From Thermoplasmata archaeon (GTDB taxonomy: Archaea > Thermoplasmatota > DTKX01 > DATEUP01): 32,155 nt of DNA. Below the pieces are notes generated by a model, which was given only the letters and a program-made list of their open reading frames with translations, was not told the DNA's origin and did no database searches. Positions within the stretch are counted from its first letter, which is position 1. Every line of letters starts with the position of its first letter. A program made the position numbers and the translations under genes. Positions 2,086 through 20,642 of the stretch are shown here, piece by piece. The stretch is from the NCBI GenBank assembly GCA_041487695.1, contig JBGPNV010000003.1, forward strand, positions 1 to 32,155. The letters run 5' to 3'.

Positions 2086-2092
2086 TTTTAAT
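2086..2092 (+). promoter_or_regulatory. TATA-like box for the first receiver gene
   Basis: TTTTAAT preceded by purine-rich GGAGAAG (BRE-like) in an otherwise GC-rich intergenic region. Confidence 0.5.
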
Positions 2093-2146
2093 CCAAGGCG
2101 GCCGGCTAGATGAGACCCGCTGGCTCGCCGGCCAGGGGGTTTTCTA

Positions 2147-2530: not shown

Positions 2531-2599
2531 AAGCGCGTTTTTCGCGAACGGGCGGCCGCGGACGATTTTTCCGTGAATGGGCGGCCCTCCCAGCATACC

Positions 2600-2606
2600 T
2601 TTTTAT
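2600..2606 (+). promoter_or_regulatory. TATA-like box for the second receiver gene
   Basis: TTTTTAT about 63 nt upstream of the inferred start, with GGAGGT SD at 2657-2662. Confidence 0.5.
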
Positions 2607-2668
2607 TCGCACATCCTTCCTTTCCATCGCCACGCGTGCGAAACCAAGCGTGGGGTGGAGGTTTCGCG

Positions 2669-3052: not shown

Positions 3053-3053
3053 G

Positions 3054-4766: not shown

Positions 4767-4790
4767 CGTGTTTCCTCCAGGACGTTCCAT

Positions 4791-5192
4791 TCAAACGGCG
4801 CCTGTCGGGAGGAAAGCGGCGGCGTCAAAGTCGACGGAGGGGAGGCGCACCGCTGAGGCCGCCGCCTGTTTGGACTGCACCATCCGGATCGCATCGAGGG
4901 CCGCCGTCGCGTCGCGGTCGAGCTGGGCGAGCCTCACGCCGCGGTGTCGGCTCCCGTACTTGCGGGTCTTGCGCAGCCCCCGGTCGAGCAGCGCCACGGC
5001 GCCCCGAAGGTTCCCCCGGTTGAAGTGCTCGCAGCCCACGGCGATCTGGATCAGCCCTTGGAGGAACTGCCGCTCGGCGGGCGGCTGGGCGTTCCAAACG
5101 TCCTCCCAGACCTCGTGGCAGTCGAAAAACTGCCCGGCGTTGAAGAGCTCGGCCCCTTCGGCCATGAGGCGGCGCTCCTCCGAGGCGTCCAC
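4791..5192 (-). CDS. DUF309 domain protein
   Basis: LFNAGQFFDCHEVWEDVW...FLQGLIQIAVG...H...GN..GA..LL signature. GTG start at 5192 is inferred. Confidence 0.88.
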   Translation of the reverse strand: MDASEERRLMAEGAELFNAGQFFDCHEVWEDVWNAQPPAERQFLQGLIQIAVGCEHFNRGNLRGAVALLDRGLRKTRKYGSRHRGVRLAQLDRDATAALDAIRMVQSKQAAASAVRLPSVDFDAAAFLPTGAV

Positions 5193-5337
5193 GGTCGCAG
5201 GCGAGGGCCGCGGGCAAGATGAACGTGGCGGAAGGGGCTCACCCTCCCCCGCGTTTCGCGGGGGGCAGAACCGGGACAAAAGAGTTTATCCCTCGCCCGG
5301 GCAAACCGAGTTTCCGCGTTGGACAAGGGGTGGGACG

Positions 5338-5562
5338 CTGGCGGGCACGGACGCGACGGCGAAGAACTTCTGCCGCCACTGCGGAAGGCCCACGCTCTCG
5401 GCGACAGACCGGCTCAAGGTGGGGGGCGTGGACTACGAGGTGGTGTACTGCTCCGAGTGCGGCATCGCAAGCAGCGGGTTTAGGCTCGCGCGCGACGGCT
5501 CCCGCGAAGGTCCGGCCGACACCCTCTTGTTGCGGCGGCTCCACAAGCCCGAGAAGAAGTGA
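5338..5562 (+). CDS. Small Zn-ribbon protein (CxxC-x21-CxxC), probable CTG start
   Basis: FCRHCG and YCSECG knuckles. TTTATC TATA-like at 5285 and GGGGTG SD 5 nt before CTG. This is the coding-like 3' end of the long ORF 4606..5562. Confidence 0.72.
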   Translation: MAGTDATAKNFCRHCGRPTLSATDRLKVGGVDYEVVYCSECGIASSGFRLARDGSREGPADTLLLRRLHKPEKK

Positions 5563-5585
5563 GATTGCGCCCTCGCGAAGTGACC

Positions 5586-5593
5586 TTCAAATA
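5586..5593 (+). promoter_or_regulatory. TATA box of tRNA-Met
   Basis: TTCAAATA about 40 nt upstream of the mature tRNA. Confidence 0.5.
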
Positions 5594-5631
5594 GGGCGCG
5601 CCCGGTGCTGCGCGTGCGCCGCCTTTCCCAC

Positions 5632-5736
5632 GCCGCGGTGGCTCAGCCCGGCGGAGCGAGGGACTCATAGGGCGTGTGGGGCGACCTGCGCGCCGGAGAG
5701 ATCCCTAGGTCGAGGGTTCAAATCCCTCCCGCGGCA
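5632..5736 (+). tRNA. tRNA-Met(CAT), elongator type, with a 31-nt intron (5670..5700) at position 37/38
   Basis: Acceptor GCCGCGG/CCGCGGC, D arm GCTC/GAGC, anticodon stem AGGGA/TCCCT, CAT at 5666-5668, T arm GAGGG-TTCAAAT-CCCTC. The intron folds into a GCGA-capped hairpin with a BHB-like junction. Confidence 0.93.
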
Positions 5737-5848
5737 CCTCGCGCTTTCTTGAGGCCACGTCCCGCTCACGCGACTGCGGGGAAAGTCTGCCGACCTTGAG
5801 AGAGGGTGGGACGACAACTTTTAACCGCGGCGCGCCCTCGACGAACCG

Positions 5849-6652
5849 ATGGTAGGAGCGCGCGGGGCCGCAAGGAGCCGGGAAGCAAACGCACCGTTGG
5901 CCGGCCGCGTCGCGCTCGTCACGGGGGCCGCCCGCGGGCTCGGGGCGGACGTGGTCCGGCGCCTCCACGCCGAGGGTGCCTCGGTCGCCTTTTCCTACCT
6001 GAGCTCGAAGGCCCCCGCCGAGGCGCTGCTCAAGGAGCTCGGGGGGACGAAGCGCGCGCTCGCCGTGCGCGCGGATGTCTCGCGGGAGGCCGACACGCGC
6101 AGGCTTGTGGCGGCAGTCCTCGCGGAGTACGGGCGCCTTGACTTCCTGGTCAACAATGCCTCCTACTCGAACGACGCGCTGTGGAATGCGCCGTTCGAGC
6201 GGGTCGAGAGCAGGCAATTCGCGCGGGTCCTCGAGGTCGACGTGGTCGGAACGTTCAACATGTGCAAGCACGCGGCCGGCCCGATGCGCAAGCAAAAATT
6301 CGGCCGGATCGTGAACTTCTCGAGCGCGGCCTCGCTTGCCGGGGACGAGACGATGGTCGCGTACAGCCCGGCGAAGGTGGCCGTCGTGGGGCTCACGCGT
6401 AGCCTTGCCCGTGCGCTTGCCCGCGACGGGATCACCGTGAACGCCGTGGCGCCTGGCTCGATCGACACGGGCTGGATCGAACGGTGGGGGCTCACGAAAA
6501 AGGAAATTGCCGAGACGATCGCGGAGATCCCGATGGGGCGCATCGGCACGCCCGCCGAGGTCGTGGAGGCGGTCATGTTCCTGCTTTCCGAGAGCGCCGG
6601 GTTCATCACGGGCCAGACCTTGCCGGTCGACGGGGGCGTGACCGTTGGGTAG
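5849..6652 (+). CDS. SDR family NAD(P)-dependent oxidoreductase (FabG-like)
   Basis: TGAARGLG, NNAS, catalytic S and YSPAK, ITGQTLPVDGG. TTTTAA at 5819-5824 lies about 25 nt before the ATG (leaderless geometry). Confidence 0.92.
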   Translation: MVGARGAARSREANAPLAGRVALVTGAARGLGADVVRRLHAEGASVAFSYLSSKAPAEALLKELGGTKRALAVRADVSREADTRRLVAAVLAEYGRLDFLVNNASYSNDALWNAPFERVESRQFARVLEVDVVGTFNMCKHAAGPMRKQKFGRIVNFSSAASLAGDETMVAYSPAKVAVVGLTRSLARALARDGITVNAVAPGSIDTGWIERWGLTKKEIAETIAEIPMGRIGTPAEVVEAVMFLLSESAGFITGQTLPVDGGVTVG

Positions 6653-7316
6653 CCCGCCGTCTCGCGCGCCACCGGCGGCGGTCGTGATGCTGTCGGGCGG
6701 GCTCGATTCGGCCGTCGCCCTTTTCTGGGCCCGGGCCGAAGGCTACACGCTCCTGCCGCTCTCGATCGAGTTTGCCGGCCGGCCCGCGCGCGAGCTCGAG
6801 GCGGCGGCCGCAGTCGCGCGCGCGGCGGGCGCAGGGCCCCTTGCGAAAATGCCGCTGCCCTTCGTGCGCCTCGCGCACGAGCTGCCGTCGTACAAGACCC
6901 CGAAGCGGCCCGTCCCCTACGGCTACATCCCGCTGCGCAACCTCCTGTTCTACACGCTTGCGGCGTACCATGCCGACGCAAACGGCGCGCGGTTCGTCGT
7001 GGGCGGGCACCTGCTCGAGGACGCGCAGGACTTCCCCGACGCCTCGCCGAAGTACTTCGCAGAAATGAACGACCTCATCGCGCGGTCGACGAACGGCTGG
7101 GGCCTGGCCGGCTCCCCCGAGGTGCAGCTGCCGTTCTCGGGGCTGAAGAAGGAGGAAGTCGTCGCGATCGGGCTCAAGCTCGCCGTCCCCTTCGAACTCA
7201 CATGGTCGTGCTGGGTCGACGGCGATGCGCCCTGCGGCGCGTGCGCGTCTTGCAAGGACCGCCGCGAGGCCTTCGAAAAGGCCGGGATCAGCGACCCGGC
7301 GGCGGCTCGGCCGTAG
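6645..7316 (+). CDS. queC: 7-cyano-7-deazaguanine (preQ0) synthase
   Basis: PP-loop SGGLDS, YIPLRNLLF, FPD, and C-terminal Zn site TWSC-x6-CGACASC-xxR. Start overlaps the SDR stop. Confidence 0.88.
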   Translation: MGSPPSRAPPAAVVMLSGGLDSAVALFWARAEGYTLLPLSIEFAGRPARELEAAAAVARAAGAGPLAKMPLPFVRLAHELPSYKTPKRPVPYGYIPLRNLLFYTLAAYHADANGARFVVGGHLLEDAQDFPDASPKYFAEMNDLIARSTNGWGLAGSPEVQLPFSGLKKEEVVAIGLKLAVPFELTWSCWVDGDAPCGACASCKDRREAFEKAGISDPAAARP

Positions 7317-7950
7317 GCACGGCAGGGGCCGCTTCCGCTCCTGTTTGGGCCTCCCCGTCGTCGGGAGAGTCCCTCCCGTCGCCGTCCTCGCCCTCACCGT
7401 CCTCGCTGGGGGGCGGCACGCGGAGCCCCGCACGGACAAAGAAAAACCAGCCGAGCGCCAAGCCCGCGGTGGCGGGGAAGATGAAGAGGAGGATGCTCGT
7501 GTCGGGGGGCGGGGCGTTGAGGACGAAACTGTACGTCAGGAAGACGCTGAAGTTGTAGGGGTTCTCGAAGTAGATCATGTAGCTTGCAGCCTCTGGCACA
7601 GTCCAGTTGTCCCGAAGGCCGGACACGGTCCTGTTGTAGTAGACCTTGTACCCGGTGAGCCCCGCGTGCGTGTGGATCTCGAAGAGGATGGGGGCGCCCG
7701 TCCCGTTGTTGACGGCAAATTCGACGCGGAGGGTGTCGCCGACGGAGGGCGGCAGCCCGATCTGGTCGAGGTAGGCATGCAGCGTATAGTTCGGGGAACC
7801 CCAGGGCGCGAGCGTCTGGTTCCCCGATTGGTAGAGGGGGGCCGAGCCGGCAAGGTGGGCGCTTGCCGGGCCCGCGGCGGAAAGGCTCAACAGCAGGGCA
7901 ATGGCGGCAAGGATGGCCCGGCAGGCATGGGGGGTTCGCACGCCCTTCAC
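7288..7950 (-). CDS. Exported membrane-anchored protein with predicted mature N-terminal His; last gene of the copper operon
   Basis: GTGA overlap with the upstream stop. Signal peptide ends ASA|HLAG, followed by a beta-rich domain with an EIHTH motif, a C-terminal TM and an acidic tail. Only this 3' part of ORF 7288..9348 looks coding. Confidence 0.75.
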   Translation of the reverse strand: MKGVRTPHACRAILAAIALLLSLSAAGPASAHLAGSAPLYQSGNQTLAPWGSPNYTLHAYLDQIGLPPSVGDTLRVEFAVNNGTGAPILFEIHTHAGLTGYKVYYNRTVSGLRDNWTVPEAASYMIYFENPYNFSVFLTYSFVLNAPPPDTSILLFIFPATAGLALGWFFFVRAGLRVPPPSEDGEGEDGDGRDSPDDGEAQTGAEAAPAVPTAEPPPGR

Positions 7951-9662
7951 ACTCCCCGCAACGTGACACCAAACGAGAAGGTGAGCGGGTCGCCGCTCAG
8001 CATGAGGACGGTGCCGTCGAGTCGCCACGTCCCGGGCTGCGAGAGGGCCGGAGTGTCCGTGAAGAAGTGGTTGCCGTGGGGCCCGTCGAACGCGACGGGG
8101 TTCGGAGGAAGCGTGCTGTTTTGCAACGTGAAGCGCACCGAAAGATTCGTCGCGCCGTCGAACTCGGCGCCCGTCGAGGCGTTCCAGAGGGTGATCTGAA
8201 GGCTGTACACTTGGGGGACGGACGGTGTGGGGTCGCACGTGAGGTCGAAGCGGACGGCGCCCTGGGTTTGGTGCAGCACAAAGGGTTCGGGGGCCGCGGG
8301 GGGCGGGGCGGCCGCTGGCGAAAGGGCCGTGAGCAGGCCCGCCAGGACGAGGATGCAGGCGCCGAGCAGGACCTCGAAGCGCACGCGCGCGAGGATGTGT
8401 CGCACGGCCGGCGCGCGCTTCGAAGGCCGTTCGAGCTTGGGGACATGGCGGAAGTGGTTCCAGGCGCCGAGGGCCGCAAGCGGGACGAAGAGCAGGGCCT
8501 TCAGGAGGACGACGTTGCCAAAGGCCGTCGAGAAGAGGCGGTCGACGGACTTGACCTCGAGGACCGCGAGGGTGAGCCCCGCGAGGAGCGCGAGGACGAC
8601 AGAGCCGGTCGCCAACTTCGAGAACCGTTCGAGGGCCGGGGCCGCAACCTCGGCCGTGTGGGGGGCGTTCAAGGCGGCGCGCACCACGGCAAGGGCGAAG
8701 AGGCCGCCCACCCAGGTCGTGACGGCGCTCAGGTGCGCCGCGTCGAGGAGGGCCCCCCAAGCGCGCAGGTTCGCGTCGGCGGCCGCATGGCTTGCAGCGC
8801 TCGTGGATGCCACGGCGCCAAGTGCGGCAGCAAGAGCGGAAAGGAGGAGGGGGTCCAGGGCGCGGGCGGGCAGGATGGGGCGGCGGCGGGCAAGGAGGAG
8901 CAGCGCCGCGGCGCCGCCCCCGAAGGCCATGCGCGCAAGCAGCGAGAGATTGAACGGGGTCATGAGCGAGACCGTGGCACCATCGGCGGCCGCCGCGCCG
9001 ACCGAATACGCGAGCCAAGAGAGCGTCACCGCGACAAAGGCGCCTGCGTTCCCGCCGGCCCAAAGGAGGAGGAAGCGCAACGTGACAAGGCTGCGCGCCC
9101 GGCTTTCCTCGTCGCCGCGGCGCGCGGCGGGGGCCCAGACGAGGGCGGCAAGTGCCGCGCCGCCGACGGCGAGCGCAAGAGTGAAGTAGGCCGCGATGCG
9201 CAAGGCGACCTGCGCCGGCGCGGGCGTGTCGGACTCCGACGGCCCGCCGGCCTGGAGTGTGCCGTTGATGCTGCCGTTGGCGTCGGGGATGGCGAAGGAA
9301 AAGGACCCGGCGTTGTAGTGGCCGTCGACCGCGGAAGTCCCCGACCAAACCACGGTGTAGACGCCCGGGCTCAAAGGGCCGAGGTCCGTCTGGATCACGC
9401 GAGCGTCCGCCGACGAGACCCGAGTGCCGTTCGCGTCGTGGCGCGTGCCCGTGCTGTCCGTGACGCGGATGCTCGCGCTGCCCTGCGCGACGTCCTCCGT
9501 GAGCGAGACCGAGACGTTGAGGGGAGCCTGATCAAGGATCTGGTTGGGCCTTGGCGCCGAGGTAACAAAGAGCGCGTGGCCCATCGCCGGCGCGGCAAGG
9601 GCGAGCAAAACGACCGCGAGGCCCAAGGCCGCGACCGGTGCTTGCCTTCCCATGATCCTCAT
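7947..9662 (-). CDS. copCD: CopC/CopD fusion copper transport protein with C-terminal soluble (YtkA/FixH-like) domain
   Basis: Signal peptide then HA, CopC motif GVYTVVW..SAVDGH..GSFSF, CopD TM region with SHAA, H..A...WVGGL, RFS and FG.VVLLK. Confidence 0.88.
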   Translation of the reverse strand: MRIMGRQAPVAALGLAVVLLALAAPAMGHALFVTSAPRPNQILDQAPLNVSVSLTEDVAQGSASIRVTDSTGTRHDANGTRVSSADARVIQTDLGPLSPGVYTVVWSGTSAVDGHYNAGSFSFAIPDANGSINGTLQAGGPSESDTPAPAQVALRIAAYFTLALAVGGAALAALVWAPAARRGDEESRARSLVTLRFLLLWAGGNAGAFVAVTLSWLAYSVGAAAADGATVSLMTPFNLSLLARMAFGGGAAALLLLARRRPILPARALDPLLLSALAAALGAVASTSAASHAAADANLRAWGALLDAAHLSAVTTWVGGLFALAVVRAALNAPHTAEVAAPALERFSKLATGSVVLALLAGLTLAVLEVKSVDRLFSTAFGNVVLLKALLFVPLAALGAWNHFRHVPKLERPSKRAPAVRHILARVRFEVLLGACILVLAGLLTALSPAAAPPPAAPEPFVLHQTQGAVRFDLTCDPTPSVPQVYSLQITLWNASTGAEFDGATNLSVRFTLQNSTLPPNPVAFDGPHGNHFFTDTPALSQPGTWRLDGTVLMLSGDPLTFSFGVTLRGV

Positions 9663-11305: not shown

Positions 11306-12595
11306 ATGAAAGCGTTCTGGGGGTTGGGCCTCCTCGCGGCCTTCGGCGCGCTTTGCCTTTTTGCCGCGCCGGCCAGCGCGACGCATTGGACGGGGTCCGG
11401 GACGCTTGCGCCGCTCGCGGCCTTCTCGGGCGAAACGGTGCACTTTGCCTTTGTGCTCAACAACTCCGCCAACGAGACCCTCTCCGTGATCGGTGCGACG
11501 ATGGTCGCCTGCTGGCACGGGTCGGGCCCCGGGTCCGACCTCAAGGCCGACGACGGCACGAACCTGACGGTACCCGCCTCATCGAGCACGCGCATCGAAG
11601 CCGACGTCGGCGTGCCGCCCCTTGCCCCGGGCCTTTGCCACACGACCGTGGTCGTCCACGCGCAGGCGGCGTCGGACCCCTCGCCCGGGTACGGCGACTA
11701 CCACTTCGACGTGAACTACTCGACACGCCCGGCGGTCACCCTCGCCCTCAACGCGTCCCCTCTCGAGGGCGCGCCGGGGCTCAACGTCACCTTCGCGGCC
11801 ACGGTGGGTGGGGGCCAGAGCCCCTACAACCTCACGTGGCAGTTCGGGGACGGGACGATGGGCTCGGGGGCCTCCGTCGTCCACCTCTACGCCCGGGTCG
11901 GCCGGTTCAACGCCACCGCGGTGGCAGAAGACGCGCGGGGGTCGCGGCAGTCCCGAAGCGTCGAGGTCTGGGTCTTTTCGGGCCTCTCCGTGACAGCCAG
12001 CGCGATCCCCACGGTCGGGCAGGCCCCGCTCACGGTCGCGTTTGTGGGCAATGCCGGCGGGGCCTACGGGGCGCTCGGCATTGGCTGGCAGTTCGGGGAC
12101 GGGGTGAACGGCACGGGGTTCCGCCCCTCCCACGTCTTCCTCCAACCTGGCTCGTACACCGTCCGATTCTGGGCCGTCGATGAGGCGGGCGCCGAGGCCA
12201 ACGCCACGGTCGTCGTGCACGTGCTCACGCCGATGAACGTGACGATCGCGGTAACGCCAGGTGCCGACGGTTCGACCTTCACGTTCGCCGCCACGGTGGT
12301 CGGCGGCGGCGCGAACCTCTCCTTCCACTGGTCCTTCAGCGACGGGGGATTCGCCTCGGGCGCGGAGGTGAGCCACCGGTTCGCCGCGAGCGGGGGCTTC
12401 CGCGTCTCCGTCCATGTCATCGACAGTGCTTCGGGGGGCTTTGCGACGGCGAACGCGACGGGCAACGCGAATGGATCGCCCGCGGCGCCCCCGAGTCCGC
12501 GCTCACCGGGCTTCGATGGGCTCGGCGCGGCCGCCGCGCTTTCGGCGGCCGGGCTTTTCGTCGCCCTTCGGGGCCGCGCCGCGGCGCGCCGGTGA
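11306..12595 (+). CDS. PKD-domain cell-surface protein with PGF-CTERM-like sorting signal
   Basis: Signal peptide, three PKD motifs (WQFGDG twice, WSFSDG), and a C-terminal SPGF + hydrophobic + RR tail typical of archaeosortase A substrates. Confidence 0.88.
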   Translation: MKAFWGLGLLAAFGALCLFAAPASATHWTGSGTLAPLAAFSGETVHFAFVLNNSANETLSVIGATMVACWHGSGPGSDLKADDGTNLTVPASSSTRIEADVGVPPLAPGLCHTTVVVHAQAASDPSPGYGDYHFDVNYSTRPAVTLALNASPLEGAPGLNVTFAATVGGGQSPYNLTWQFGDGTMGSGASVVHLYARVGRFNATAVAEDARGSRQSRSVEVWVFSGLSVTASAIPTVGQAPLTVAFVGNAGGAYGALGIGWQFGDGVNGTGFRPSHVFLQPGSYTVRFWAVDEAGAEANATVVVHVLTPMNVTIAVTPGADGSTFTFAATVVGGGANLSFHWSFSDGGFASGAEVSHRFAASGGFRVSVHVIDSASGGFATANATGNANGSPAAPPSPRSPGFDGLGAAAALSAAGLFVALRGRAAARR

Positions 12596-12689
12596 CGCCG
12601 ACGAGGGCTTTCGCTCACCCCCCGCTTCGAGCCTTATATGCCGGCCGCGCTAGGGTGGGTTGGCGGGGTCATGAAGTATAGGCGAGCCC

Positions 12690-13472
12690 TCAGCGGGGCG
12701 CCTCGAAGCGCCGCTCGAGCTCCGCGCGCTCCTTCAGCACCGCCGCAAGCGGCGTTGTTCCAAGGCCCTGGTTGATGCGCGTCATGAAGGCGCGTTGCGC
12801 CTCCAGCAGCCCCTTCTCCCGTGCACCTTGCCCGGCCCCTGACCTAGCAAGCTCCCTCGCGCGCCTTGAAAGGACGAGGCAGAGGGCGTCGAAAACCGCG
12901 GCCTCGAGCGGTCCCATCTCGATGGCCCACACCTCCTCGCCGCCTGCGAGAGAGGCGGCCGGCGTGAGCCCCCGCTCACGCATCGCACGGTCGAGCTCGG
13001 CCCACCATGCATCGACGTCGCGGGCAAGCGCCTCGTCTTCGCGGCCGCCCGCAAGGGCGCGCGCGGCGAGCCGCTCGGCGCCCTCGAGCCTCTGGAGGTA
13101 GAGGGCCTCCATCGCGCATGCGGCGCGGATCGGCTCGATCTCGTGGACGCGGTGCCGCCTTGCGACGAACTCCATGAAAAGCGCGAGCGAACGCGGCGTC
13201 AACCGCGTGACGGGCCCCGCGAAGGGCCCCTGCGTGATGCTGTAGTCGAAAAGGAACACCCACAGGTCGCGCTCCGCGGCGTCCTCGGGCATCTTCGGAT
13301 AGGTGTTGGCGAGGAACTCCACAAACAGGTACGCGTTGTCCGCATGGAGGTGCGCCTCGGTCTTGTCCATCCGGCCGCCGGCGTCGAGGGCGCTCGCGAA
13401 GGCCTCGACCTCTCGGGCCGCCGCGAGGTGAACGGTGTCGAAGGGGTCTTCGGGCTGCACGGGCAAGGTCAC
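12690..13472 (-). CDS. Hypothetical protein; N-terminal half resembles an integrase core-binding (SAM-like) helical domain
   Basis: Host-like codon usage. GTG at 13472 is chosen because the upstream ORF extension runs through tRNA-Gly. Domain resemblance is by eye only. Confidence 0.65.
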   Translation of the reverse strand: MTLPVQPEDPFDTVHLAAAREVEAFASALDAGGRMDKTEAHLHADNAYLFVEFLANTYPKMPEDAAERDLWVFLFDYSITQGPFAGPVTRLTPRSLALFMEFVARRHRVHEIEPIRAACAMEALYLQRLEGAERLAARALAGGREDEALARDVDAWWAELDRAMRERGLTPAASLAGGEEVWAIEMGPLEAAVFDALCLVLSRRARELARSGAGQGAREKGLLEAQRAFMTRINQGLGTTPLAAVLKERAELERRFEAPR

Positions 13473-13532
13473 CTCGTCCCCAAGCCAAAAAGGGTGGCCG
13501 ACGGGGGCGCCCTCCCGAGGGGGCGAAGTGTC

Positions 13533-13538
13533 TTTAAG
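13533..13538 (+). promoter_or_regulatory. TATA box of tRNA-Gly
   Basis: TTTAAG about 30 nt upstream of the tRNA. Confidence 0.55.
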
Positions 13539-13568
13539 CGGCGCCCCGCGTTTTCCGCTCGGCCCCAA

Positions 13569-13641
13569 GCAGGCGTAGTCTAGCTGGTCAGGACTTCGGC
13601 CTTCCAAGCCGATGACCCGGGTTCGAATCCCGGCGCCTGCA
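13569..13641 (+). tRNA. tRNA-Gly(TCC)
   Basis: Acceptor GCAGGCG/CGCCTGC, anticodon stem TCGGC/GCCGA with TCC at 13603-13605, T arm CCGGG-TTCGAAT-CCCGG. No encoded CCA. Confidence 0.96.
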
Positions 13642-13691
13642 TACTTTTCACTTCTGGCTCTAGCGGTCATGAGCGGGGGATTGAAAGCGCT

Positions 13692-13718
13692 CCGTTGTCC
13701 CCTTTCGCCTGCCCCCCG
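13692..13718 (+). repeat. Partial copy (right-hand box) of the island repeat
   Basis: CCGTTGTCCCCTTTCGCCTGCCCCCC matches CTGTTGTCCCTTTTGCCCGCCCC of the full repeats. It lies about 50 nt after the tRNA end. Confidence 0.6.
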
Positions 13719-13799
13719 AGGAGGGGGGCGGGCTCTTTCCGTCCCCCGTCTTCCCCAATGACCAAACTCAAATACCGCAGTGGAGGAGATGTCCCCCGC

Positions 13800-14510
13800 A
13801 TGGAGAATAAGCCCGCAGCGCCCGCTGATCAGCCCGCGTCCGTCGCGAGCGTCCTGCTTTTGCCCCTTCTAGCTACCGGGGCTGCTGGTTTCGAGATGGC
13901 CCTCGCATTTCTGTACGTTTACATTGATCCCTTCCCAAATATCATGCTCGGGTTTCTGTTTGCAACGTTTCCCCTCGTCGCGGGCATGGCAATCTACCGA
14001 CCTACCTTGGCTCGCCCGGAACCCAAGGGGGCGGCCGCCCAGACGTTCGGTGGCCGCGCCAGGTGGTTGGGGATGATTACCGTAGCGTCCTGGGGAATGG
14101 GTGTCCTCGTAATCTCAAGCCCCAAGGTTCACCTTTCGGTCCCGATGGCCATATGGACCGGCCTGTTCGGCTCGATGGGGATCGGCGTCGGTTGGGCCCT
14201 TCGCCCGACTCAAGTGACCTTCACGGCTGATGCCGCGGAACTGCGACTCAATGGCCGCATTGAGTGGCGGGTTCCATGGAGCGATGTCACAGAAATCCGC
14301 CGCGGGGGGTCGATCGTCCTGGGCCCGAAGGGCGTACCCGCTTCCCAACCTTGGATACTTCTCGTTAGAACCGGCGGGGATTCCGTGTCGATAGAGTGCG
14401 ACCGGTTGCCGCCATCCGTGTTCAACTGGATCGAGGAGTTCTTGAAGGCCGAAGCGGGGCGCCGCGGAAATGTGCGTTGGACCAGCTCTGTGCGTCCTGC
14501 GCAATCTTGA
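13800..14510 (+). CDS. Membrane protein (4 TM) with C-terminal bacterial PH-like domain
   Basis: GGAGGA SD before ATG 13800, four hydrophobic helices, VPWSDVTEI motif. Visibly more A/T at third codon positions than the backbone genes. Confidence 0.7.
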   Translation: MENKPAAPADQPASVASVLLLPLLATGAAGFEMALAFLYVYIDPFPNIMLGFLFATFPLVAGMAIYRPTLARPEPKGAAAQTFGGRARWLGMITVASWGMGVLVISSPKVHLSVPMAIWTGLFGSMGIGVGWALRPTQVTFTADAAELRLNGRIEWRVPWSDVTEIRRGGSIVLGPKGVPASQPWILLVRTGGDSVSIECDRLPPSVFNWIEEFLKAEAGRRGNVRWTSSVRPAQS

Positions 14511-14589
14511 TACCTCGCCTTGGGTTCCCGAGAGCCCGCTCGAAGGTGCCGAAGACTTGAACGTCGCGGCCCTGCGCACCCCTTTCGAA

Positions 14590-14685
14590 TGGACAGGAAG
14601 AGGGCTGCTCGCCCCCCCACCCTGGCTGCTCCTCGCAAGCCCTGGCTTTTGCACCGCGCCCTGTTGTCCCTTTTGCCCGCCCCTC
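14590..14685 (+). repeat. ~96-bp intergenic repeat, copy 1
   Basis: TGGACAGGAAG...CCCTGGCTGCTCCTCGCAAGCCCTGGCTTTTGCACC...CCCTGTTGTCCCTTTTGCCCGCCCCTC. About 7 differences from copy 2 by manual alignment. Confidence 0.95.
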
Positions 14686-14752
14686 GTCAGCAATGACCGA
14701 TGGCCCCCTCCCATGAGTGGGTTTCATAACCGGGTCCGGCCTCGTCGTCCCG

Positions 14753-15271
14753 ATGAGCAAGCGCTCGGTGCTCCCCCTCGGCAAGTGGACGGTCTCGGTC
14801 GATGTCGAGGCCACAAGAGCAATCTACGCCAACGAGAAGGCCGGCGCCGACGTGTGCGTCTGCGGCATGTGCAAGAGTTACGGCTCAGTGCGAGCCGTGG
14901 CTATTCCGGCGAGGGGGCGAGCGATGCTCGAGGTCCTCGGGATTGACCCTTCGAAGGAGGAGGAGATCGTCTGGGGCTACCCGGCCGAGGACGGTTACCG
15001 CTTCTTCGAAGGGTGGTTCCACTTTGTGGGCGAGGTGGTGTCGGGCGGCCCGGCGTTCAACGAGAAGGCAGAGCCGCAGCATTGGTGGGATCAGATCACG
15101 GGGCGCTTTGGAATCGGAGTCTCGGCAGGGCGAGGTCTGCCGTGCTTTGAGGCGTTTCGAAAGGGCCATTCGGAGGCCGTTGAGTTCCGGGTGGAGGTTG
15201 CAGAGGCGACGCCGGGTTTCAGGAAGCTGAGGGCCCCGGAGTTTGAGGAGTTGGAGCCACCGGCGCCGTGA
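14753..15271 (+). CDS. Hypothetical protein with CxCxxC motif
   Basis: VDVEAT..Y...CVCGMC...LGIDP.K...GWFHFVG. TTCATAA lies about 24 nt before the ATG (leaderless geometry). Bracketed by repeat copies 1 and 2. Confidence 0.78.
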   Translation: MSKRSVLPLGKWTVSVDVEATRAIYANEKAGADVCVCGMCKSYGSVRAVAIPARGRAMLEVLGIDPSKEEEIVWGYPAEDGYRFFEGWFHFVGEVVSGGPAFNEKAEPQHWWDQITGRFGIGVSAGRGLPCFEAFRKGHSEAVEFRVEVAEATPGFRKLRAPEFEELEPPAP

Positions 15272-15314
15272 GAACCGCTCCGACGTAGGAGTCGACGCCG
15301 GCTCCCTGACCGAG

Positions 15315-15409
15315 TGGACAGAAAGAAGGCTGCTCGCCCCCCCACCCTGGCTGCTCCTCGCAAGCCCCGACTCTTGCACCGCGCCCTGTCGTCCCTTTTG
15401 CCCGCCCTC
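15315..15409 (+). repeat. ~96-bp intergenic repeat, copy 2
   Basis: Direct alignment with 14590..14685. Confidence 0.95.
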
Positions 15410-15490
15410 ACTTCTGCCCGCCGCCACCCGGGGCGTCGGGCGCCCTCCCATTATTTATCTGAGGGCGCCTACAACGAGCGGAGGAGCATC

Positions 15491-15748
15491 ATGGCGGCGC
15501 CCGCTTCACGGAAGACCCATCGGGCGGGGGGCAGGCGTCCACGATCTGCCTCGGCGCGCGGGCGGCTCCCCGGACTCGTGGTCTTTGACGTGGCCAAGTA
15601 CGGCGGCAAATGGGTCGCGACGCGACGCGGCCAAATCGTGGCGGCGGCCGACGACTTCGCCGCTATTCGCAGGGCCGTCCGTGAACTCGGCCTCGAGGAC
15701 GACGCGATCCTCACACGAATCCCCGAAACGGGGGAGTACGCCTATTGA
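15491..15748 (+). CDS. DUF5678-like small protein
   Basis: KYGGKWVA...QIVAAADDF signature. TATTTATC TATA at ~15452 and GGAGGAG SD. Confidence 0.78.
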   Translation: MAAPASRKTHRAGGRRPRSASARGRLPGLVVFDVAKYGGKWVATRRGQIVAAADDFAAIRRAVRELGLEDDAILTRIPETGEYAY

Positions 15749-16233
15749 CGACTCCACGCGACCGGGTCTCGTTCGGGTTCCACGCGTTCCCCTTCTACGG
15801 AATGGCGAGGCCGGAACGGCCCCTCTACTCGGTTCCGCTCTTGCCCATCCGGGTTCGTCCCCCCGGCGGGCCGTGGTCGAACCCGCTGAATGCCGTAATG
15901 GACACGGGGTCAACGCACTCCTACCTTCCCGGCGACATGGCCGGGGAACTGGGGCTTGCCCCTGAAGGAACGGAGGTCGAGCGCAAAGGCTCCGGGGCCA
16001 CATTTGCGGCGCAAGCCGCGCGTTGTGACCTTGCGATTGTCGATGCGGGGTTTCCGACCGTCACCTGCTGGGAACTGTCCGATTTCGAACTATGGGTTCC
16101 GACGAAGCGGGCGTCATTGGAAGTGCCGCTTCTCGGTTGGGACCTGCTGCACCTCTTCGACCTCTCGCTCAGCAGCCACGAGGACCTCATCCGGATGCGG
16201 CTCGCCCCCGCGCCGGCGGCCAGCAGGCGATGA
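15745..16233 (+). CDS. Retropepsin-like aspartyl protease
   Basis: AVMDTGSTHSYLP catalytic motif and PLLGWDLL psi-loop. TTGA overlap with the DUF5678 gene. Confidence 0.85.
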   Translation: MTTPRDRVSFGFHAFPFYGMARPERPLYSVPLLPIRVRPPGGPWSNPLNAVMDTGSTHSYLPGDMAGELGLAPEGTEVERKGSGATFAAQAARCDLAIVDAGFPTVTCWELSDFELWVPTKRASLEVPLLGWDLLHLFDLSLSSHEDLIRMRLAPAPAASRR

Positions 16234-16384
16234 CTTCCCGAGGCCTTGAGGGCCCCGGATCGACGTATTATGGCGAGCGGTTTGAGCTTGTGAAATGCCT
16301 CGTTGCGTGGGCGGATTCGCGTCGTGGGCGGATGAAGCGGGAGCGGACGGGACGGTGTCCTGGGTCGCGACCGCTGGCTCGACG

Positions 16385-16437
16385 GTCAATTTGGGGGTTC
16401 TTGCACGTGGCCCTGTTGTCCCCATTGCCTGCCCCCG
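16385..16437 (+). repeat. Partial copy (right half) of the island repeat
   Basis: GTCAATTTGGGGGTTCTTGCACGTGGCCCTGTTGTCCCATTGCCTGCCCCC aligns to the right half of copies 1-3. Confidence 0.8.
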
Positions 16438-16567
16438 ATTGAGGCACAGGGGTGGGCACGCTCCCGTCAATTTGTGACGGTCAACGTCGCCACAGTTCAA
16501 ACCACGAGAATTGGCGGCCGCGCGCCGCCTGCGCCCCAGAAGGGCGGATCAACAGCTGCGACGACTA

Positions 16568-16600
16568 CGATGACCCGGGTTCGAATCCCGGCGCCTGCAT
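16568..16600 (+). repeat. att-like 33-bp direct repeat of the tRNA-Gly 3' end
   Basis: CGATGACCCGGGTTCGAATCCCGGCGCCTGCAT is identical to 13610..13642. Confidence 0.95.
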
Positions 16601-16612
16601 CCCTCTCCTAAC

Positions 16613-16674
16613 GGGCTGCCCATTCAATCAGCCGACCTTTGCTCGGGCCCTGCTGTCCCGTTTGCCCCCCCCCC
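16613..16674 (+). repeat. Diverged partial copy of the island repeat directly after the att duplicate
   Basis: GGCTGCCCATTCAATCAGCCGACCTTTGCTCGGGCCCTGCTGTCCCGTTTGCCC aligns to the right ~60 nt of copy 2. Confidence 0.7.
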
Positions 16675-16740
16675 GAGCGCGCAGAACGCGCCTCCCGCGC
16701 ACCGTGACGCCAGCACCCGCCACGAGTTGCAGCCAAGGAT

Positions 16741-16760
16741 GATATGTGAGTTCACATATC
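16741..16760. promoter_or_regulatory. Operator palindrome of the vapBC-like pair
   Basis: GATATGTGA-GT-TCACATATC, a perfect 9-bp inverted repeat 8 nt before the antitoxin ATG. Confidence 0.75.
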
Positions 16761-16768
16761 CCTCACCC

Positions 16769-16993
16769 ATGCCCAACCTGACCCTCGCGCTCGACGCGGA
16801 GACCGCCAAATGGGTGAAAGCGCACCCGGAGATCGGGTGGAGCGAGGTGGCGCGTCAGGCCATCCGCCGCCGGATCCGCGAGCTCCACGCGCTCGACGCC
16901 GCCTTTGCCGAGTCGCAGCTCAACGAGGCCGACATCGAGCGGCTCACGCGGAAGGCCAAGGAACGCCTGCTGCGGGAAGTCGGTCGCGCATGA
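16769..16993 (+). CDS. Ribbon-helix-helix antitoxin (VapB-like)
   Basis: MPNLTLAL...HPEIGWSEVARQAI archaeal RHH pattern. ATGA overlap with the PIN gene. Confidence 0.85.
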   Translation: MPNLTLALDAETAKWVKAHPEIGWSEVARQAIRRRIRELHALDAAFAESQLNEADIERLTRKAKERLLREVGRA

Positions 16994-17433
16994 CGGCAAG
17001 CCGCCCGCGGCTCGACGGGCCGGTCGTGGTCGACGCGAACATCCTTTTCGGCGCGCTGCTGCGGGACGGCACGACGCGGCACCTCTTGCTCTACGGCGGC
17101 CTCCAACTCCATACGCCCGCCCATGTGTGGGGAGAGTTCGAGCGCAACCGCGAGTATTTGCTCAAGAAGAGCGGGGCTACGGAGGCCGCGCTCGGTCTCT
17201 TGCTCGACGCGCTCCGAGATCGGATGGCCGATGTGCCCCTGCCATTGATCCGCGAACGGATGGAGGAGGCGGCCAAGAGCGTGGGCCCGCGGGGGACTCT
17301 GGACGCGCCGTATGTGGCTGCGGCTATGGCGCTTGGGGCCACGTTGTGGACCCAAGACAAGGAACTGAAGCGACACGCCCCGGTGCCCGTCGTGAACACG
17401 GCGGATGTGGTGGCCGCGCTCGGGCTGCCGTGA
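16990..17433 (+). CDS. PIN-domain toxin (VapC-like)
   Basis: VVVDANIL, E, DAPYVAAA and LWTQDKEL acidic tetrad. Confidence 0.9.
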   Translation: MTASRPRLDGPVVVDANILFGALLRDGTTRHLLLYGGLQLHTPAHVWGEFERNREYLLKKSGATEAALGLLLDALRDRMADVPLPLIRERMEEAAKSVGPRGTLDAPYVAAAMALGATLWTQDKELKRHAPVPVVNTADVVAALGLP

Positions 17434-17494
17434 GGTTCGTGAGCAGGGCGCCTCCGGGAGCGGCTCTGCAAGGGCCGCCCGGTCCCCTACCGCC

Positions 17495-17590
17495 TGGACA
17501 GGAAGGAATTTGATAGCCCCTGCGCCCTGGCTGCTCCTTGCAAGCCCTGGCTTTTGCACCCTCGCCCCGTTGTCCCTTCTGCCCGCCCTC
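17495..17590 (+). repeat. ~96-bp intergenic repeat, copy 3
   Basis: Same TGGACAGGAAG start and conserved right two-thirds; positions ~12-30 are diverged. Confidence 0.92.
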
Positions 17591-17682
17591 CGCAATGGGG
17601 GCGGGCGCCACGCTGGTGCCCGGCAACGGCTTCAGCGTCGGGGCGACCATGCCCGCGAAAGGCGGGCCGTCGCACGATCAAC

Positions 17683-18288
17683 TCAATGGCCGCTTGGGCC
17701 CTTGCGCCGGGGCACGAGCCATCCCACCTTAATCAGCCATGCCTTGAGCGCGAGGCGCGCCTGCCACCCATATTCTTCGGGGAGTAGATCCGAAACCCGC
17801 AGGGCGTGCATGCGCAGAAGGTCCCGTCCCACCAAACGCTCGGCGAGTGCGATACTCACCTCGCTGCGACGGGCGTGCAGCAAGACCGCCACATCGGTAA
17901 GGTCCATTTCGCGCCCGGCCCTGAGCTTGAGGCGAAGGAGGTCCTCAAGGGATGCTACCGAGACCGGAACCTTGGCATACACGAGCTTGCGGGCCCGGTG
18001 CATGAGATCCTCATCAACCGGCACATCCCCGATTCGCGATGTGTAGGCGTCGACCTCGCCGACCGCGGGCGACTTGAACGTGTGCTTGGCCAGGTGCGTT
18101 TCGCGGTGGGAGAAGCCGGCTCTCAGCAAGGCAGCCTTGAGGGTCGGGAAATCCCGCTCTCGCGTGACGACATCGATGTCGTGGGTCGTTCGGTAAGCCA
18201 CATAGGACTCGACCGCAACACCTCCGATGAAGACCGCGCGGTCGGCGAGGTGCTCCTCGATGAGCCGCACAATGGCTGCTACGTCCAC
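17683..18288 (-). CDS. Nucleotidyltransferase-fold toxin (AbiEii-like)
   Basis: FIGGVAV...RTTHDIDVV and LLRLKLRAGREMDLTD motifs. Confidence 0.82.
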   Translation of the reverse strand: MDVAAIVRLIEEHLADRAVFIGGVAVESYVAYRTTHDIDVVTRERDFPTLKAALLRAGFSHRETHLAKHTFKSPAVGEVDAYTSRIGDVPVDEDLMHRARKLVYAKVPVSVASLEDLLRLKLRAGREMDLTDVAVLLHARRSEVSIALAERLVGRDLLRMHALRVSDLLPEEYGWQARLALKAWLIKVGWLVPRRKGPSGH

Positions 18289-18908
18289 GGCGCGGCCTCC
18301 TCTAGCACCTTGAGCATCGCGTGACCGTCGATCCTCATCCCCGGCCGCCGGCTCTCAGGGAATTCGACAAACACGCGAGCCGCATCAAGACCGTGCCGGC
18401 CCCCCATCCGCGCCGAGTCCTCGACGAGGCGGCTCAAGGACACCAAGCACAGGCCTTGCGTGACCTGCGAGTTGGAAAGAACATCGTCGGGAGCGCGAAG
18501 GAGTACGAGGTTCGCGCGCTCACCGTCCTCAGGAGGGACCGCGCCTTTGGCCCGCAGGGCGCGGCGCCAAAGCGCGATCGGCCGGACGTACACCCAAACG
18601 GCCGCGGGCGTTTGGTACTTGGTGAGAACCCAGGCCGCCACGTCAAGCGTTGCTGCATAGGGAAGCTCCTTCCGCGCGGCTACGGCCTTGACCGCATCGG
18701 TGGCATCGGCCACCCCGCGCCCGCACCGCAGGTACACGGGCTCCGCAAATGGATCAAGGACGCGCTCCAGGGCCTCGCGCGTGACAGCCGATGGGACTTG
18801 AAGCCCGTTTTCAATGAAACTCAGAGAGGTGCGCGAAATCCCCGATGCCGCCGAGAGATCCGCCTGAGAGAGCGCCAGGTTTCGGCGTCGATTACGCAGG
18901 TCTAACAT
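18279..18908 (-). CDS. Xre-HTH protein, putative cognate (AbiEi-like) antitoxin
   Basis: RRRNLALSQADLS...ISRTSLSFIENG..PS HTH and a C-terminal YA.T...AAW / VWVYV / GERANLVLL region. Overlaps the toxin start. ATG at 18908. Confidence 0.78.
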   Translation of the reverse strand: MLDLRNRRRNLALSQADLSAASGISRTSLSFIENGLQVPSAVTREALERVLDPFAEPVYLRCGRGVADATDAVKAVAARKELPYAATLDVAAWVLTKYQTPAAVWVYVRPIALWRRALRAKGAVPPEDGERANLVLLRAPDDVLSNSQVTQGLCLVSLSRLVEDSARMGGRHGLDAARVFVEFPESRRPGMRIDGHAMLKVLEEAAPWT

Positions 18909-18935
18909 GATGTTAAGTAGGATTAACATGGTCAA
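18903..18935. promoter_or_regulatory. Operator-like palindromes at the start of the HTH gene
   Basis: TAACAT-G-ATGTTA (18903-18915) and a second related TTAACATGGTCAA in an AT-rich patch. Confidence 0.5.
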
Positions 18936-19004
18936 GAACGTTGCGTCCAACGGCACTACCGGGTCGCCGCCTTCGGCGACACGTACGTCCTCGGGGTCCT
19001 CGGG

Positions 19005-19221
19005 AGAGATGGGCCTGCGGTTCGACTTTCGGCAATTCCGCCGCGCCTTCGGGCAAAACGCCTTGGATCGCGGCCCACGGCTCGATTCCGTGTCGGTGGC
19101 CCTCGGCCACCACAGCACCAAAACCACGGAGGCCTACTACGCGCGGATACGGACCAAGGACGCCTTCAGGGACCTCGAACGAGTTTGGGTTACCCCCTCG
19201 GTGCAAAAACCCGCTGATTGA
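19005..19221 (+). pseudogene. C-terminal fragment of a tyrosine recombinase/integrase
   Basis: FDFRQFRRAFGQ (HxxR variant)...VSVALGHHSTKTTEAYY with the catalytic Tyr. N-terminal domains and the box I Arg are absent. Confidence 0.85.
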
Positions 19222-19371
19222 CGCTAGAGCCAGCGGCGCCGCCTTCAAGGGCCGGCGCCTGCAGTTCTCTTCATCACGCGGACAGGTCCCCCCGCGACCG
19301 CATGGCCCGCGGAAGCCCCTTGAACTCGCGGGACGGTTCGCGCCCGAGGCCGCTTGGTGGAAAACGGGAAG

Positions 19372-20052
19372 CTACGGCGGGCTCTTCGGCCGTGAAACCT
19401 GGAAGGAGGCGACGAGGGTCAAGACGACCGTCGCCTCGGCTAAGCCCACACCCGGGAGGAATCGGCCCCCGGCGGCGCCCGGCGGGGGCCGGAAGTTGCG
19501 GTCGACATAGTCGATGCGGTCGGCGGCGCTCCCTCCATCGTAGAGGTTCCGAGACACCTGCGCCTGGGCCGTCCATCCGCCCGAGATGTCGGAGAAAAGG
19601 GACCGGGGAATTGCCATGGTAAGCGTGTCCCCGTGGACCGTCCAGTTGACAACACCCTGGCCCTCGCGGTGCTCCATCTCGGCGCTCCCGTTAGAATAGT
19701 AGAGTCGGAGGACAAACGACGCGTTGGGGTGGGAAATGAGGGCGTCGTAGCTCACCCCGGGGTCGCTCTGCGCGATTGCCCCCTTCACCTGAAGCTCGAC
19801 CACAATCTGGTCAGCGACGTTGCACGTCCTGAGGTCGACCACGTCGAGTTCCTCGAAGCCCGAGACTTGGGCCGGCGGCGAGGTCTGCTGAACATCGCCC
19901 GCGGGGTCAAGCAGGCGGTACTCGTAGGCTGAGCCGCACGAAGGGGCCGGCGCTGCGTCGCCGGAGGGGGCGGAAGCAAGGAGCGCGAGCAGCCCGACGC
20001 CAAGGACCCAAGGAGGAAACCTTTTCGTCAACGGGAGGCCGATGGCAGGCAA
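19372..20052 (-). CDS. Exported protein with PGF-CTERM-like (LPGV) anchor
   Basis: Signal peptide, DPAGDV...LDVVDL beta domain, and FLPGVG + hydrophobic + basic tail. Start uncertain (TTG 20052 or 20031). Confidence 0.72.
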   Translation of the reverse strand: MPAIGLPLTKRFPPWVLGVGLLALLASAPSGDAAPAPSCGSAYEYRLLDPAGDVQQTSPPAQVSGFEELDVVDLRTCNVADQIVVELQVKGAIAQSDPGVSYDALISHPNASFVLRLYYSNGSAEMEHREGQGVVNWTVHGDTLTMAIPRSLFSDISGGWTAQAQVSRNLYDGGSAADRIDYVDRNFRPPPGAAGGRFLPGVGLAEATVVLTLVASFQVSRPKSPP

Positions 20053-20168
20053 GGCGCGGACGGCTCTTCAACTTTGGCGGGAGGCCTTTCATTGACTTCA
20101 CCCGAGCGCTTTGGCAAGCGACGTCGCCCGTGCCCGGTTTGCACCCTGCGACCCCCCGAGGTGCAACC

Positions 20169-20642
20169 ATGACCATCCAGGTCGCGCTGCGCCCCGTCGC
20201 CGACAGCGACCTCCCCTTCCTCTTCGCCAACCAACAGGACCCGGTGGCCACCGCGATGGCCGCCTTCCCCACCAGGGACAGGGAGGCGTTTTGGGCGCAC
20301 TTGAGCAAGATCCGCGCCGACAAAGCCGTCACGCTGAGGACGGTCCTCGTCGGCAGCGAGGTCGCGGGGACGATCAACAGCTGGCCCCAAGACGGCCGGG
20401 CGATGGTCGGTTACTGGATCGGACGGGCCTTCTGGGGCCGGGGCGTGGCCACCGAGGCGCTGCGGCTGCTTCTCCGCGAGGTGAAGGAGCGCCCTCTTTA
20501 CGCGCACGTGGCCAAGCAAAACGTTGGCTCGGTCCGCGTGCTCGAGAAGTGCGGCTTCAAGATAGTGGGCGAGGAGAAGGATGTCTCGGTCGGCGGCGGC
20601 CCGCCGGCCGACGAGTGGGTCATGCGCTTGGACGGGCCCTGA
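20169..20642 (+). CDS. GNAT N-acetyltransferase (RimJ/RimL-like)
   Basis: VGYWIGRAFWGRGVATEAL and NVGSVRVLEKCGF. GAGGTG SD. Confidence 0.92.
   Translation: MTIQVALRPVADSDLPFLFANQQDPVATAMAAFPTRDREAFWAHLSKIRADKAVTLRTVLVGSEVAGTINSWPQDGRAMVGYWIGRAFWGRGVATEALRLLLREVKERPLYAHVAKQNVGSVRVLEKCGFKIVGEEKDVSVGGGPPADEWVMRLDGP

Follow-up and report, generated by a model that had tools for sequence, protein, structure and literature searches.

Small accessory modules and attachment-site-derived repeats at a tRNA-Gly gene of a Thermoplasmata archaeon

Genes and features of the tRNA-Gly island

The stretch of DNA analyzed here, referred to as the window, is the entire 32,155-bp contig C3 (JBGPNV010000003.1) of a Thermoplasmata metagenome-assembled genome (MAG; GCA_041487695.1, here G000; 2.62 Mb, 82% complete, ~69% G+C). 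At positions 13642–19263 it harbors an island of five unrelated gene modules with co-oriented copies of a ~100-nt repeat between them. The island adjoins a tRNA-Gly(TCC) gene at 13569..13641 on the plus strand (predicted by ARAGORN; Rfam tRNA, 72.9 bits), which is the integration target and forms the attB half of attL, and its G+C content (62–68%) is slightly lower than that of the flanks (68–72%). An earlier, sequence-only reading had described unrelated modules stacked at this tRNA with co-oriented repeats, and all of the elements that it listed were found.

The modules carry one or two genes each. Module 1 (13758..14510, plus strand) encodes a 250-aa predicted membrane protein, and module 2 (14753..15271, plus) a 172-aa protein with a CxCxxC motif; both were called as open reading frames (ORFs). 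Module 3 (15491..16233, plus) pairs a DUF5678-like gene (15491–15748; E = 2e-4, below the cut-off) with a gene for a retropepsin-like aspartyl protease (15745–16233; Asp_protease_2, 26.8 bits, above the cut-off). The two overlap by 4 nt and resemble a two-gene, toxin-antitoxin (TA)-style module. Module 4 (16740..17433, plus) consists of a palindromic operator, a ribbon-helix-helix (RHH) antitoxin gene (16769–16993), and a PIN toxin gene (16990–17433; PIN_2, 1e-20), while module 5 lies on the minus strand (17683..18911) and encodes an AbiEii/DUF2204-like nucleotidyltransferase (17683–18288) and an HTH_3 protein (18279–18911). Pfam searches confirmed the sequence-only annotation for the protease, PIN, nucleotidyltransferase, and helix-turn-helix genes, left DUF5678 as a weak call, and gave no match for the proposed membrane/PH, CxCxxC, and RHH proteins.

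Three full copies of the repeat occur in the island, namely R1 (14579..14693; nhmmer E = 1.2e-28), R2 (15303..15414; recovered by nhmmer profile search and 89% identical to R1), and R3 (17484–17598, or 17484..17610 with an adjoining GC hairpin). A fourth element at 16345..16442 (profile E = 2.8e-11), previously taken for a partial copy near 16385, is actually a full-length variant, termed type II, whose middle most resembles an integrase 3′ end in reverse complement. Weaker copies are located at 13681–13717, at 16394–16442 (within this variant), and at 16637–16673, and all six copies in the window lie on the plus strand. The copies have sharp common boundaries and three recognizable segments.

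At the left end of the island, an attL arm (P′; 13642..13737, plus) is composed of an inverted copy of the arm at the integrase 3′ end, a conserved terminal block, and a GC hairpin. It matches the repeat profile at 13648–13715 (E = 1.4e-7), and its positions 13654–13677 form a 24-nt inverted repeat, 83% complementary, with 19210–19233 in the attR arm. Further inside, a duplicate of the tRNA-Gly 3′ end (16568..16607, plus; 33 nt exact and 93% over 40 nt) constitutes an internal att site, the same 33 nt being the attR of the related genome G003, and it is followed by another P′ arm (16608..16685, plus), which is a partial repeat copy with a profile match at 16622–16672 (E = 1.1e-5).

At the right end lies an integrase remnant (18982..19221, plus; Pfam PF00589, E = 4e-4) comprising the last 79 aa with the catalytic tyrosine region; the N-terminal ~250 aa are missing, and the remnant retains its own stop codon at 19219–19221. 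Both the tRNA 3′-end duplicate (16568–16607) and this tyrosine-recombinase fragment had been noticed from the letters alone and were borne out, as was the remark that the only recombinase on site is a remnant. Overlapping the integrase 3′ end is attR (19199..19263, plus), an arm followed by an attP-type core that carries the last ~12 nt of tRNA-Gly at its end, with an inverted profile match at 19237–19199 (E = 0.021). The island is therefore bounded by attL (tRNA plus arm) and attR (arm plus tRNA 3′-end repeat), which is the arrangement of bacterial cis-mobilizable elements (CIMEs) and their accretion.

Beyond attR, ~0.9 kb (19264–20129) separates the island from a conserved acetyltransferase-like gene (20130–20642). 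This interval holds a 226-aa ORF with a hydrophobic N-terminus on the minus strand (19372–20052), and it looks like a further insertion outside the island. In the metagenome locus L125 and in genomes G001 and G003, the conserved flank starts ~65–125 nt past attR.

Origin of the repeat from attachment sites

The nature of both island ends became apparent through an intact relative of the truncated integrase. The remnant is 97% identical to residues 260–330 of P0001, a 330-aa integrase encoded on the 1661-nt metagenome contig L067, where the integrase and its attP together span positions 558–1661; other relatives of the remnant occur in Thermoplasmata and Methanomassiliicoccales MAGs. The L067 attP starts with the integrase 3′ end, continues in a ~30-nt core that closes with the last ~12 nt of tRNA-Gly, and reaches a second arm after a short spacer; its two arms are inverted copies of each other. 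Its left part is 92% identical to 19010–19271 of the window, attR included, and its right arm is 81% identical to 13630–13690. Because one contiguous attP matches both ends, 13642–13737 can be assigned to attL and 19199–19263 to attR. Moreover, the stretch at 19239–19270, which the sequence-only reading took for a third, decayed tRNA copy, is a core region native to the element’s attP, as on L067. The contiguous order of arm, core, and arm on L067 is the form expected of a free or tandemly integrated element, the rest of which lies off the contig.

An SSV-type (“suicidal”) integrase element, also considered for the island, was rejected: the L067 ORF ends just before the core, and the remnant in the window reaches its own stop codon. 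In a search for a second att copy of convergent integrase-tRNA elements, an exact, tRNA-end-anchored repeat of at least 11 nt was found at 1 of 15 loci.

The repeat itself is a composite attachment-site half of a tRNA-integrating tyrosine integrase family, that of P0001. Read on its reverse strand, it consists of a conserved ~30-nt block, a ~33-nt arm resembling the integrase 3′ end, and a ~30-nt core ending in the last ~12 nt of tRNA-Ala(CGC). This is the order of the integrase side of the L067 attP with a tRNA-Ala end instead, and the spacing between arm and core is similar by eye. For the tRNA portion, the reverse complement of the tRNA-Ala(CGC) 3′ end fits the start of the repeat best among 92 probes (46 tRNAs in both orientations), with a mean of 9.05 of 12 matches over 22 copies, as compared to a background of 5.60 ± 0.72 and a runner-up of 7.1; an nhmmer profile search gave E = 0.016. 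Within the island, it is the first 19 nt of R3 that match this reverse-complemented tRNA end best, and the start of the type II variant agrees with it at 10 of 12 positions.

The middle of the repeat is homologous to the inverted attP arms. A profile of the repeat’s right two-thirds matches, on the minus strand, the integrase 3′ ends of L067 (E = 0.017) and of the window (E = 0.021), neither of which had been included in the profile. The clearest link between arm and integrase is provided by the type II variant, where 16371–16406 and 19201–19236 form a 36-nt inverted repeat with 81% complementarity. Finally, the last ~30 nt of the repeat are its most conserved block and are shared with the arm beside tRNA-Gly.

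Arrays at tRNA-Ala genes fit with this anatomy. At both tRNA-Ala(CGC) loci encountered (C216 of G000 and L046 of G001), the repeat lies downstream of the tRNA on the opposite strand, which is the position expected of an attR-type scar, and it would sit there as a classical scar of this kind, co-oriented with the tRNA. At the end of the array on contig C21 of G000 lies a 3′ fragment of tRNA-Ala, and the sequence downstream of it is the flank also found on C216.

A short, intergenic, genus-restricted, multi-copy sequence with a T-run conserved near its 3′ end could also be a repeat resembling miniature inverted-repeat transposable elements (MITEs) or repetitive extragenic palindromic (REP) sequences, or a regulatory element such as a small RNA, terminator, or promoter element, located between accessory genes by chance. 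We regard this as highly improbable. For an alignment of 15 copies, RNAalifold predicted −1.16 kcal/mol on one strand and −7.69 kcal/mol on the other, each fold having one compensatory pair, so that neither strand has a consensus structure and covariation is almost lacking, and single-stranded DNA folds of three window copies on both strands were no more stable than shuffled sequences (z from +0.05 to +1.51). Complementarity near the two ends of the repeat amounts to 5 nt only, and an Rfam scan of 12500–20500 (E ≤ 1) returned only the tRNA and one chance lncRNA match, with no family for the repeat. Neighboring genes lie on either strand on each side of the copies. In G000, the seven full copies are grouped in three islands on three contigs, never in mixed orientation, and their flanks lack duplications, on which grounds a MITE or REP was rejected. 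The homology to att arms and to a tRNA end likewise argues against this explanation. A coding function was rejected as well: the reverse strand gives a similar peptide in several copies, yet indels of 1 nt and 5 nt separate the copies.

Integrons deserve separate mention, since the island does show co-oriented sites between unrelated gene units, as an integron would. The alignment and the single-stranded folds described above yielded no attC hairpin, in keeping with the sequence-only reading’s description of a non-attC repeat, and no IntI is present. The only recombinase sequence in the island is the 79-aa remnant, whose full-length relatives adjoin tRNA genes, and an integron was accordingly rejected.

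Variation among relatives and possible module exchange

Comparisons covered five assemblies of the genus (G000–G004; 82–89% complete) together with the metagenome loci L067 and L125. The repeat is not confined to the tRNA-Gly locus: G000 carries seven full copies on C3, C21, and C216 and a degenerate one on C36. It occurs in three of the four other genomes of the genus and in none of 56 genomes outside it. Genome-wide scatter irrespective of tRNAs or accessory genes, which would have spoken for an ordinary dispersed repeat, is therefore not what was found, and the copies are co-oriented in 8 of 8 arrays or contigs. In G004, a sister species, the tRNA-Gly site is empty, without arm, repeat, or island, and the distance from tRNA-Gly to tRNA-Val is 6.2 kb as compared to 14.7 kb in the window.

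The degenerate copy on C36 (4399–4479) lies in a region (~2054–4790) where a ~250-nt copy (2054–2301) of the 3′ part of a 214-aa gene (4539–5183) is found 2.2 kb away from that gene; an element seems to have inserted here into the 3′ end of a protein-coding gene. At the orthologous locus of G002 (L049), different modules follow a repeat.

By domain matches, the cargo consists mostly of TA or abortive-infection pairs. Examples include a DUF7557 antitoxin with a ParE toxin, present twice on C21; RHH and PIN genes in the window and on C216, with a PIN gene also in G003; AbiEi and AbiEii in G003, to which the nucleotidyltransferase and HTH pair of the window is comparable; and a nucleotidyltransferase with a HEPN gene in G001 and G002. 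Other cargo comprises DUF1801, a YCII-like protein, a PNPOx protein, and several proteins without a family. As the sequence-only reading anticipated, relatives vary in module content: the cargo of the tRNA-Gly island differs among G000, G001, G002, G003, and L125. With G003, for example, the attL arm is conserved to ~13737, and the content diverges beyond.

Several units recur between unlike surroundings. Of the modules in the window, L125 has just the last one, together with an integrase truncated in the same way, and 17564–19272 of the window is 89.4% identical to it over 1710 nt, while the flanks are 64–70% identical. A unit common to G001 and G002, composed of a nucleotidyltransferase gene, a HEPN gene, a 60-nt integrase remnant, and attR, is 93.8% identical between flanks of 64%; its right end is the exact end of the tRNA core, and the window/L125 unit has the same right-hand boundary. 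For reference, core DNA of G000 and G002 is ~84% identical. In another example, the unit of repeat, DUF7557-type antitoxin and ParE genes, and repeat is ~77% identical among C21 of G000, C9 of G002, and C62 of G003, with differing neighbors. An RHH gene from the tRNA-Ala island of G000 (C216) has counterparts on L049 of G002 (92% identity) and in the G001 tRNA-Gly island at L047 (78%), and the C216 island also holds a module that shares 77% identity over 685 nt with the RHH-PIN module of the window. In the tRNA-Gly islands of G000, L125, G001, and G002, integrase sequence has been lost and att sites kept, the last 79 aa remaining in the window and L125 and ~60 nt in G001 and G002. Since integrase-less units are 89–94% identical across species whose flanks are only ~64–70% identical, units have moved between species.

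These observations bear on whether the arrays are fossil scars alone, that is, old tandem integrations that later diverged through homologous recombination, deletion, and gene conversion with no site-specific activity. The islands have no integrase, and attR with a 60-nt integrase remnant is common to G000, G001, and G002; the 89% identity of the neighboring copies R1 and R2 is in line with local conversion, and one review suggests that tandem archaeal elements exchange modules by homologous recombination (PMC8371274). However, transfer of units of 89–94% identity through homology of flanks that are only ~64–70% identical is unlikely, and the right-hand unit boundary coincides exactly with the tRNA core end, pointing to units that integrated site-specifically when the integrase had already gone. 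Scars without further activity thus seem quite unlikely.

In six junction alignments, the switch between shared and unshared sequence falls inside the last ~30 nt of the repeat or at their margin, so that the fixed repeat part at which breakpoints had been expected is this conserved block. Where the right side is shared and the left differs (window/L125, G001/G002, and C216/L049), identity starts at the beginning of the block, the window/L125 identity starting inside the last ~35 nt of R3. Where the left side is shared and the right differs (C21/L048, L041/L022, and window attL/G003), identity stops after the block or the adjoining hairpin, the latter being the case in G003. Crossovers within a common ~30-nt block would leave such a pattern, and site-specific and homologous exchange would both fit. 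The repeats flanking one module are no more alike than random pairs, and pairwise identities do not reveal whether a module travels with its upstream or its downstream copy.

Such clustering is also what active cassette capture would predict, in which a module and one repeat could circularize and a recombinase acting in trans would work at the last ~30 nt of the repeat, as in an integron with a double-stranded, att-derived site. Consistent with this, the copies have identical, sharp boundaries and are strictly co-oriented in eight arrays, the genes between them are unrelated and include TA modules as in chromosomal integrons, and individual modules recur at several loci and in more than one species. 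Furthermore, in 9 of 26 copies a short spacer and then an inverted 9-nt arm come after the block, a layout resembling a recombinase core; for the same 7-mer genome-wide, the figure is 11%. Set against this are the lack of a recombinase linked to any array, a module that is inverted relative to its repeat in another species, the unremarkable similarity of repeats around the same module, and the fact that a conserved 30-nt block would also focus homologous recombination. Active capture of this kind therefore seems unlikely, and we are similarly doubtful of a capture system at the level of the genus, in which single-module cassettes, mostly of TA or defense type and each with one ~100-bp double-stranded site, would be collected on tRNA-Gly and tRNA-Ala platforms, excised, and handed from species to species by an integrase supplied in trans from a plasmid or virus, with strand exchange in the last ~30 nt.

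The search for an enzyme and for moving modules speaks to the same question. The remnant was used in tblastn against G000, PF00589 was searched in G000–G004, and P0001 and P0002 were compared by tblastn with the PF00589 loci. The intact integrase homologue that the sequence-only reading envisaged elsewhere in the genome was not detected by any of these searches, and the PF00589 genes of G000–G004 are only XerA-like or unrelated integrases, none of them beside any repeat array. Neither an exact match to the conserved terminal block nor any relative of the integrase turned up in IMG/VR. An intact, unrelated tyrosine integrase (361-aa frame; PF00589, 76 bits) is encoded in G000 at C4 28068–29665, with no repeat nearby; it lies ~1 kb downstream of tRNA-Ser(CGA) near a contig end and probably belongs to another integrated element.

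Among the matches listed, eleven public runs, none of them RNA, contain window sequence, and contigs of four sediment runs (X1–X4) were compared with positions 12800–20300. They contain short, low-depth pieces identical to the window, some bridging R1 and R3, and a single X1 contig spans 13660–15214 across R1 with 0 differences. Neither the repeat-to-repeat circular junctions proposed earlier nor any other credible excision joint was seen in these contigs, which by their nature cannot show the absence of excision; the two joints present (13036>19463 and 16898>17610) have 21-nt sides and lie away from the repeats.

The explanation that we consider probable is the tandem accretion of decayed cis-mobilizable mini-elements, reshuffled at a conserved site. 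Small integrative elements would have entered the tRNA-Gly 3′ end by means of a tyrosine integrase family common in Thermoplasmata and subsequently lost the integrase, leaving modules that are now integrase-less units between att halves, much like bacterial CIMEs. Because the attP arms are inverted copies of each other, a repeat unit could pair with the tRNA-Gly arm in the opposite orientation and thereby build a co-oriented array. Modules would then have been gained, lost, and swapped between loci and species by recombination in the last ~30 nt of the repeat, which would be either homologous or catalyzed by an integrase that an incoming element provides in trans. Excision and integration by a related integrase in trans have indirect support in the highly similar units between divergent flanks and in the intact L067 relative with its attP, and it is conceivable that some modules still move. 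The gene-capture platform of the sequence-only reading thus stands with regard to stacking at a tRNA, while its repeat turns out to be att-derived, from an ordinary tyrosine integrase family with normal attL and attR, and active capture of one cassette after another is putative.

Several points weigh against accretion and reshuffling as outlined. Pairing in the opposite orientation through inverted arms at tRNA-Gly is an extra step that the scheme must presume. Of the unit junctions, the internal att site at 16568–16607 has a tRNA-Gly core, while the three full repeats start with the reverse-complement tRNA-Ala(CGC) end; lacking a tRNA-Gly core, they are not simple tandem-integration junctions at tRNA-Gly. 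The tRNA-Ala match is itself weak past the first ~12 nt, a 24-nt probe reaching z ~2.4 and ranking second of 92. All repeat copies end at the same two positions, which suggests a selected, functional site, unlike the outcome of independent integrase decay. Intact integrases of the P0001 family are missing from the five genus assemblies, and with no on-site recombinase there is nothing at the arrays able to move units. Between G001 and G002, moreover, a module of an RHH gene and a 149–158-aa protein is inverted relative to the neighboring repeat. Finally, all genomes are fragmented MAGs, and many arrays run into contig ends.

Relation to known systems and further observations

Among bacterial systems, CIMEs offer the nearest parallel. 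These are elements at tRNA 3′ ends that have lost the integrase and kept their att sites, alongside which new elements are added and whose arrays can be moved by a related integrase, the ICESt1 family of Streptococcus being an example; their definition and a three-step scheme of accretion have been published (PMC5704250). The units described here differ in being 0.6–1.1 kb in size with one or two genes, in residing in an archaeal host, and in retaining a single ~100-nt half-site with fixed boundaries and a tRNA-Ala end, inverted in a tRNA-Gly island. The likeness to CIMEs is read from sequences, and mobilization of the present units is putative.

In Archaea, arrays of tyrosine-recombinase elements in which one tRNA site is re-used in tandem, integrases are later lost, and modules are exchanged have been reported for Thaumarchaeota, Thermococcales, and Sulfolobales (PMC6563490, PMC8371274). 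As described in the accessible portions of these reports, such arrays are made up of whole proviruses or plasmids of several kb upward, whereas the present ones are made up of single small modules. A literature search outside supplementary files brought up no account of single TA modules separated by a conserved att-derived repeat, and none of such arrays or of the P0001 integrase family in Thermoplasmata.

Chromosomal integrons, including those reported from Archaea, likewise combine co-oriented sites with unrelated small units, many of them TA pairs, to judge from the portions of the reports available (10.1101/2022.02.06.479319, PMC13108822). The arrays described here lack attC hairpins and IntI, carry genes on either strand, with a putative promoter for each as suggested by the sequence-only reading, and have a site derived from a tRNA-type attP.

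Tandem islands are also found at the ssrA gene of Dehalococcoides, where they are larger and each carry their own integrase. The present arrays have lost their integrases, and their repeat combines an arm with the core of a different tRNA, while in Dehalococcoides each island, according to the available part of the published description, is bounded by the 3′-end repeat of one small-RNA gene (PMC3146451). Unusual features of the present case are the very small units, the fixed-boundary half-site, the inverted tRNA-Ala end in a tRNA-Gly island, and the clustered breakpoints.

The island shows an archaeal tRNA locus gathering a changing set of TA and accessory modules, supplied by elements whose integrase gene has been lost, and the ~100-bp site, together with the P0001 integrase family and its contiguous attP, provides a testable substrate. 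It raises the question of whether Archaea possess cis-mobilizable mini-elements or a double-stranded analogue of integron cassettes. Moreover, it cautions that co-oriented repeats between accessory genes need not signify an integron, and that such repeats break MAG assemblies exactly where gene content varies.

Two further duplications were noted apart from the arrays. Positions 2160–2491 and 2678–2992 of the window both match one region of G004 (L187, ~4074–4409; 70% and 79%, respectively) and coincide with a dip in G+C to 0.61–0.64, suggesting a local duplication or an inserted paralogue. In L188 (contig C121 of G002, 4861–7993), tRNA-Glu(TTC) and tRNA-Ser(CGA) each occur twice, ~1.3 kb apart, which may reflect duplication of the tRNA pair or an error of assembly.

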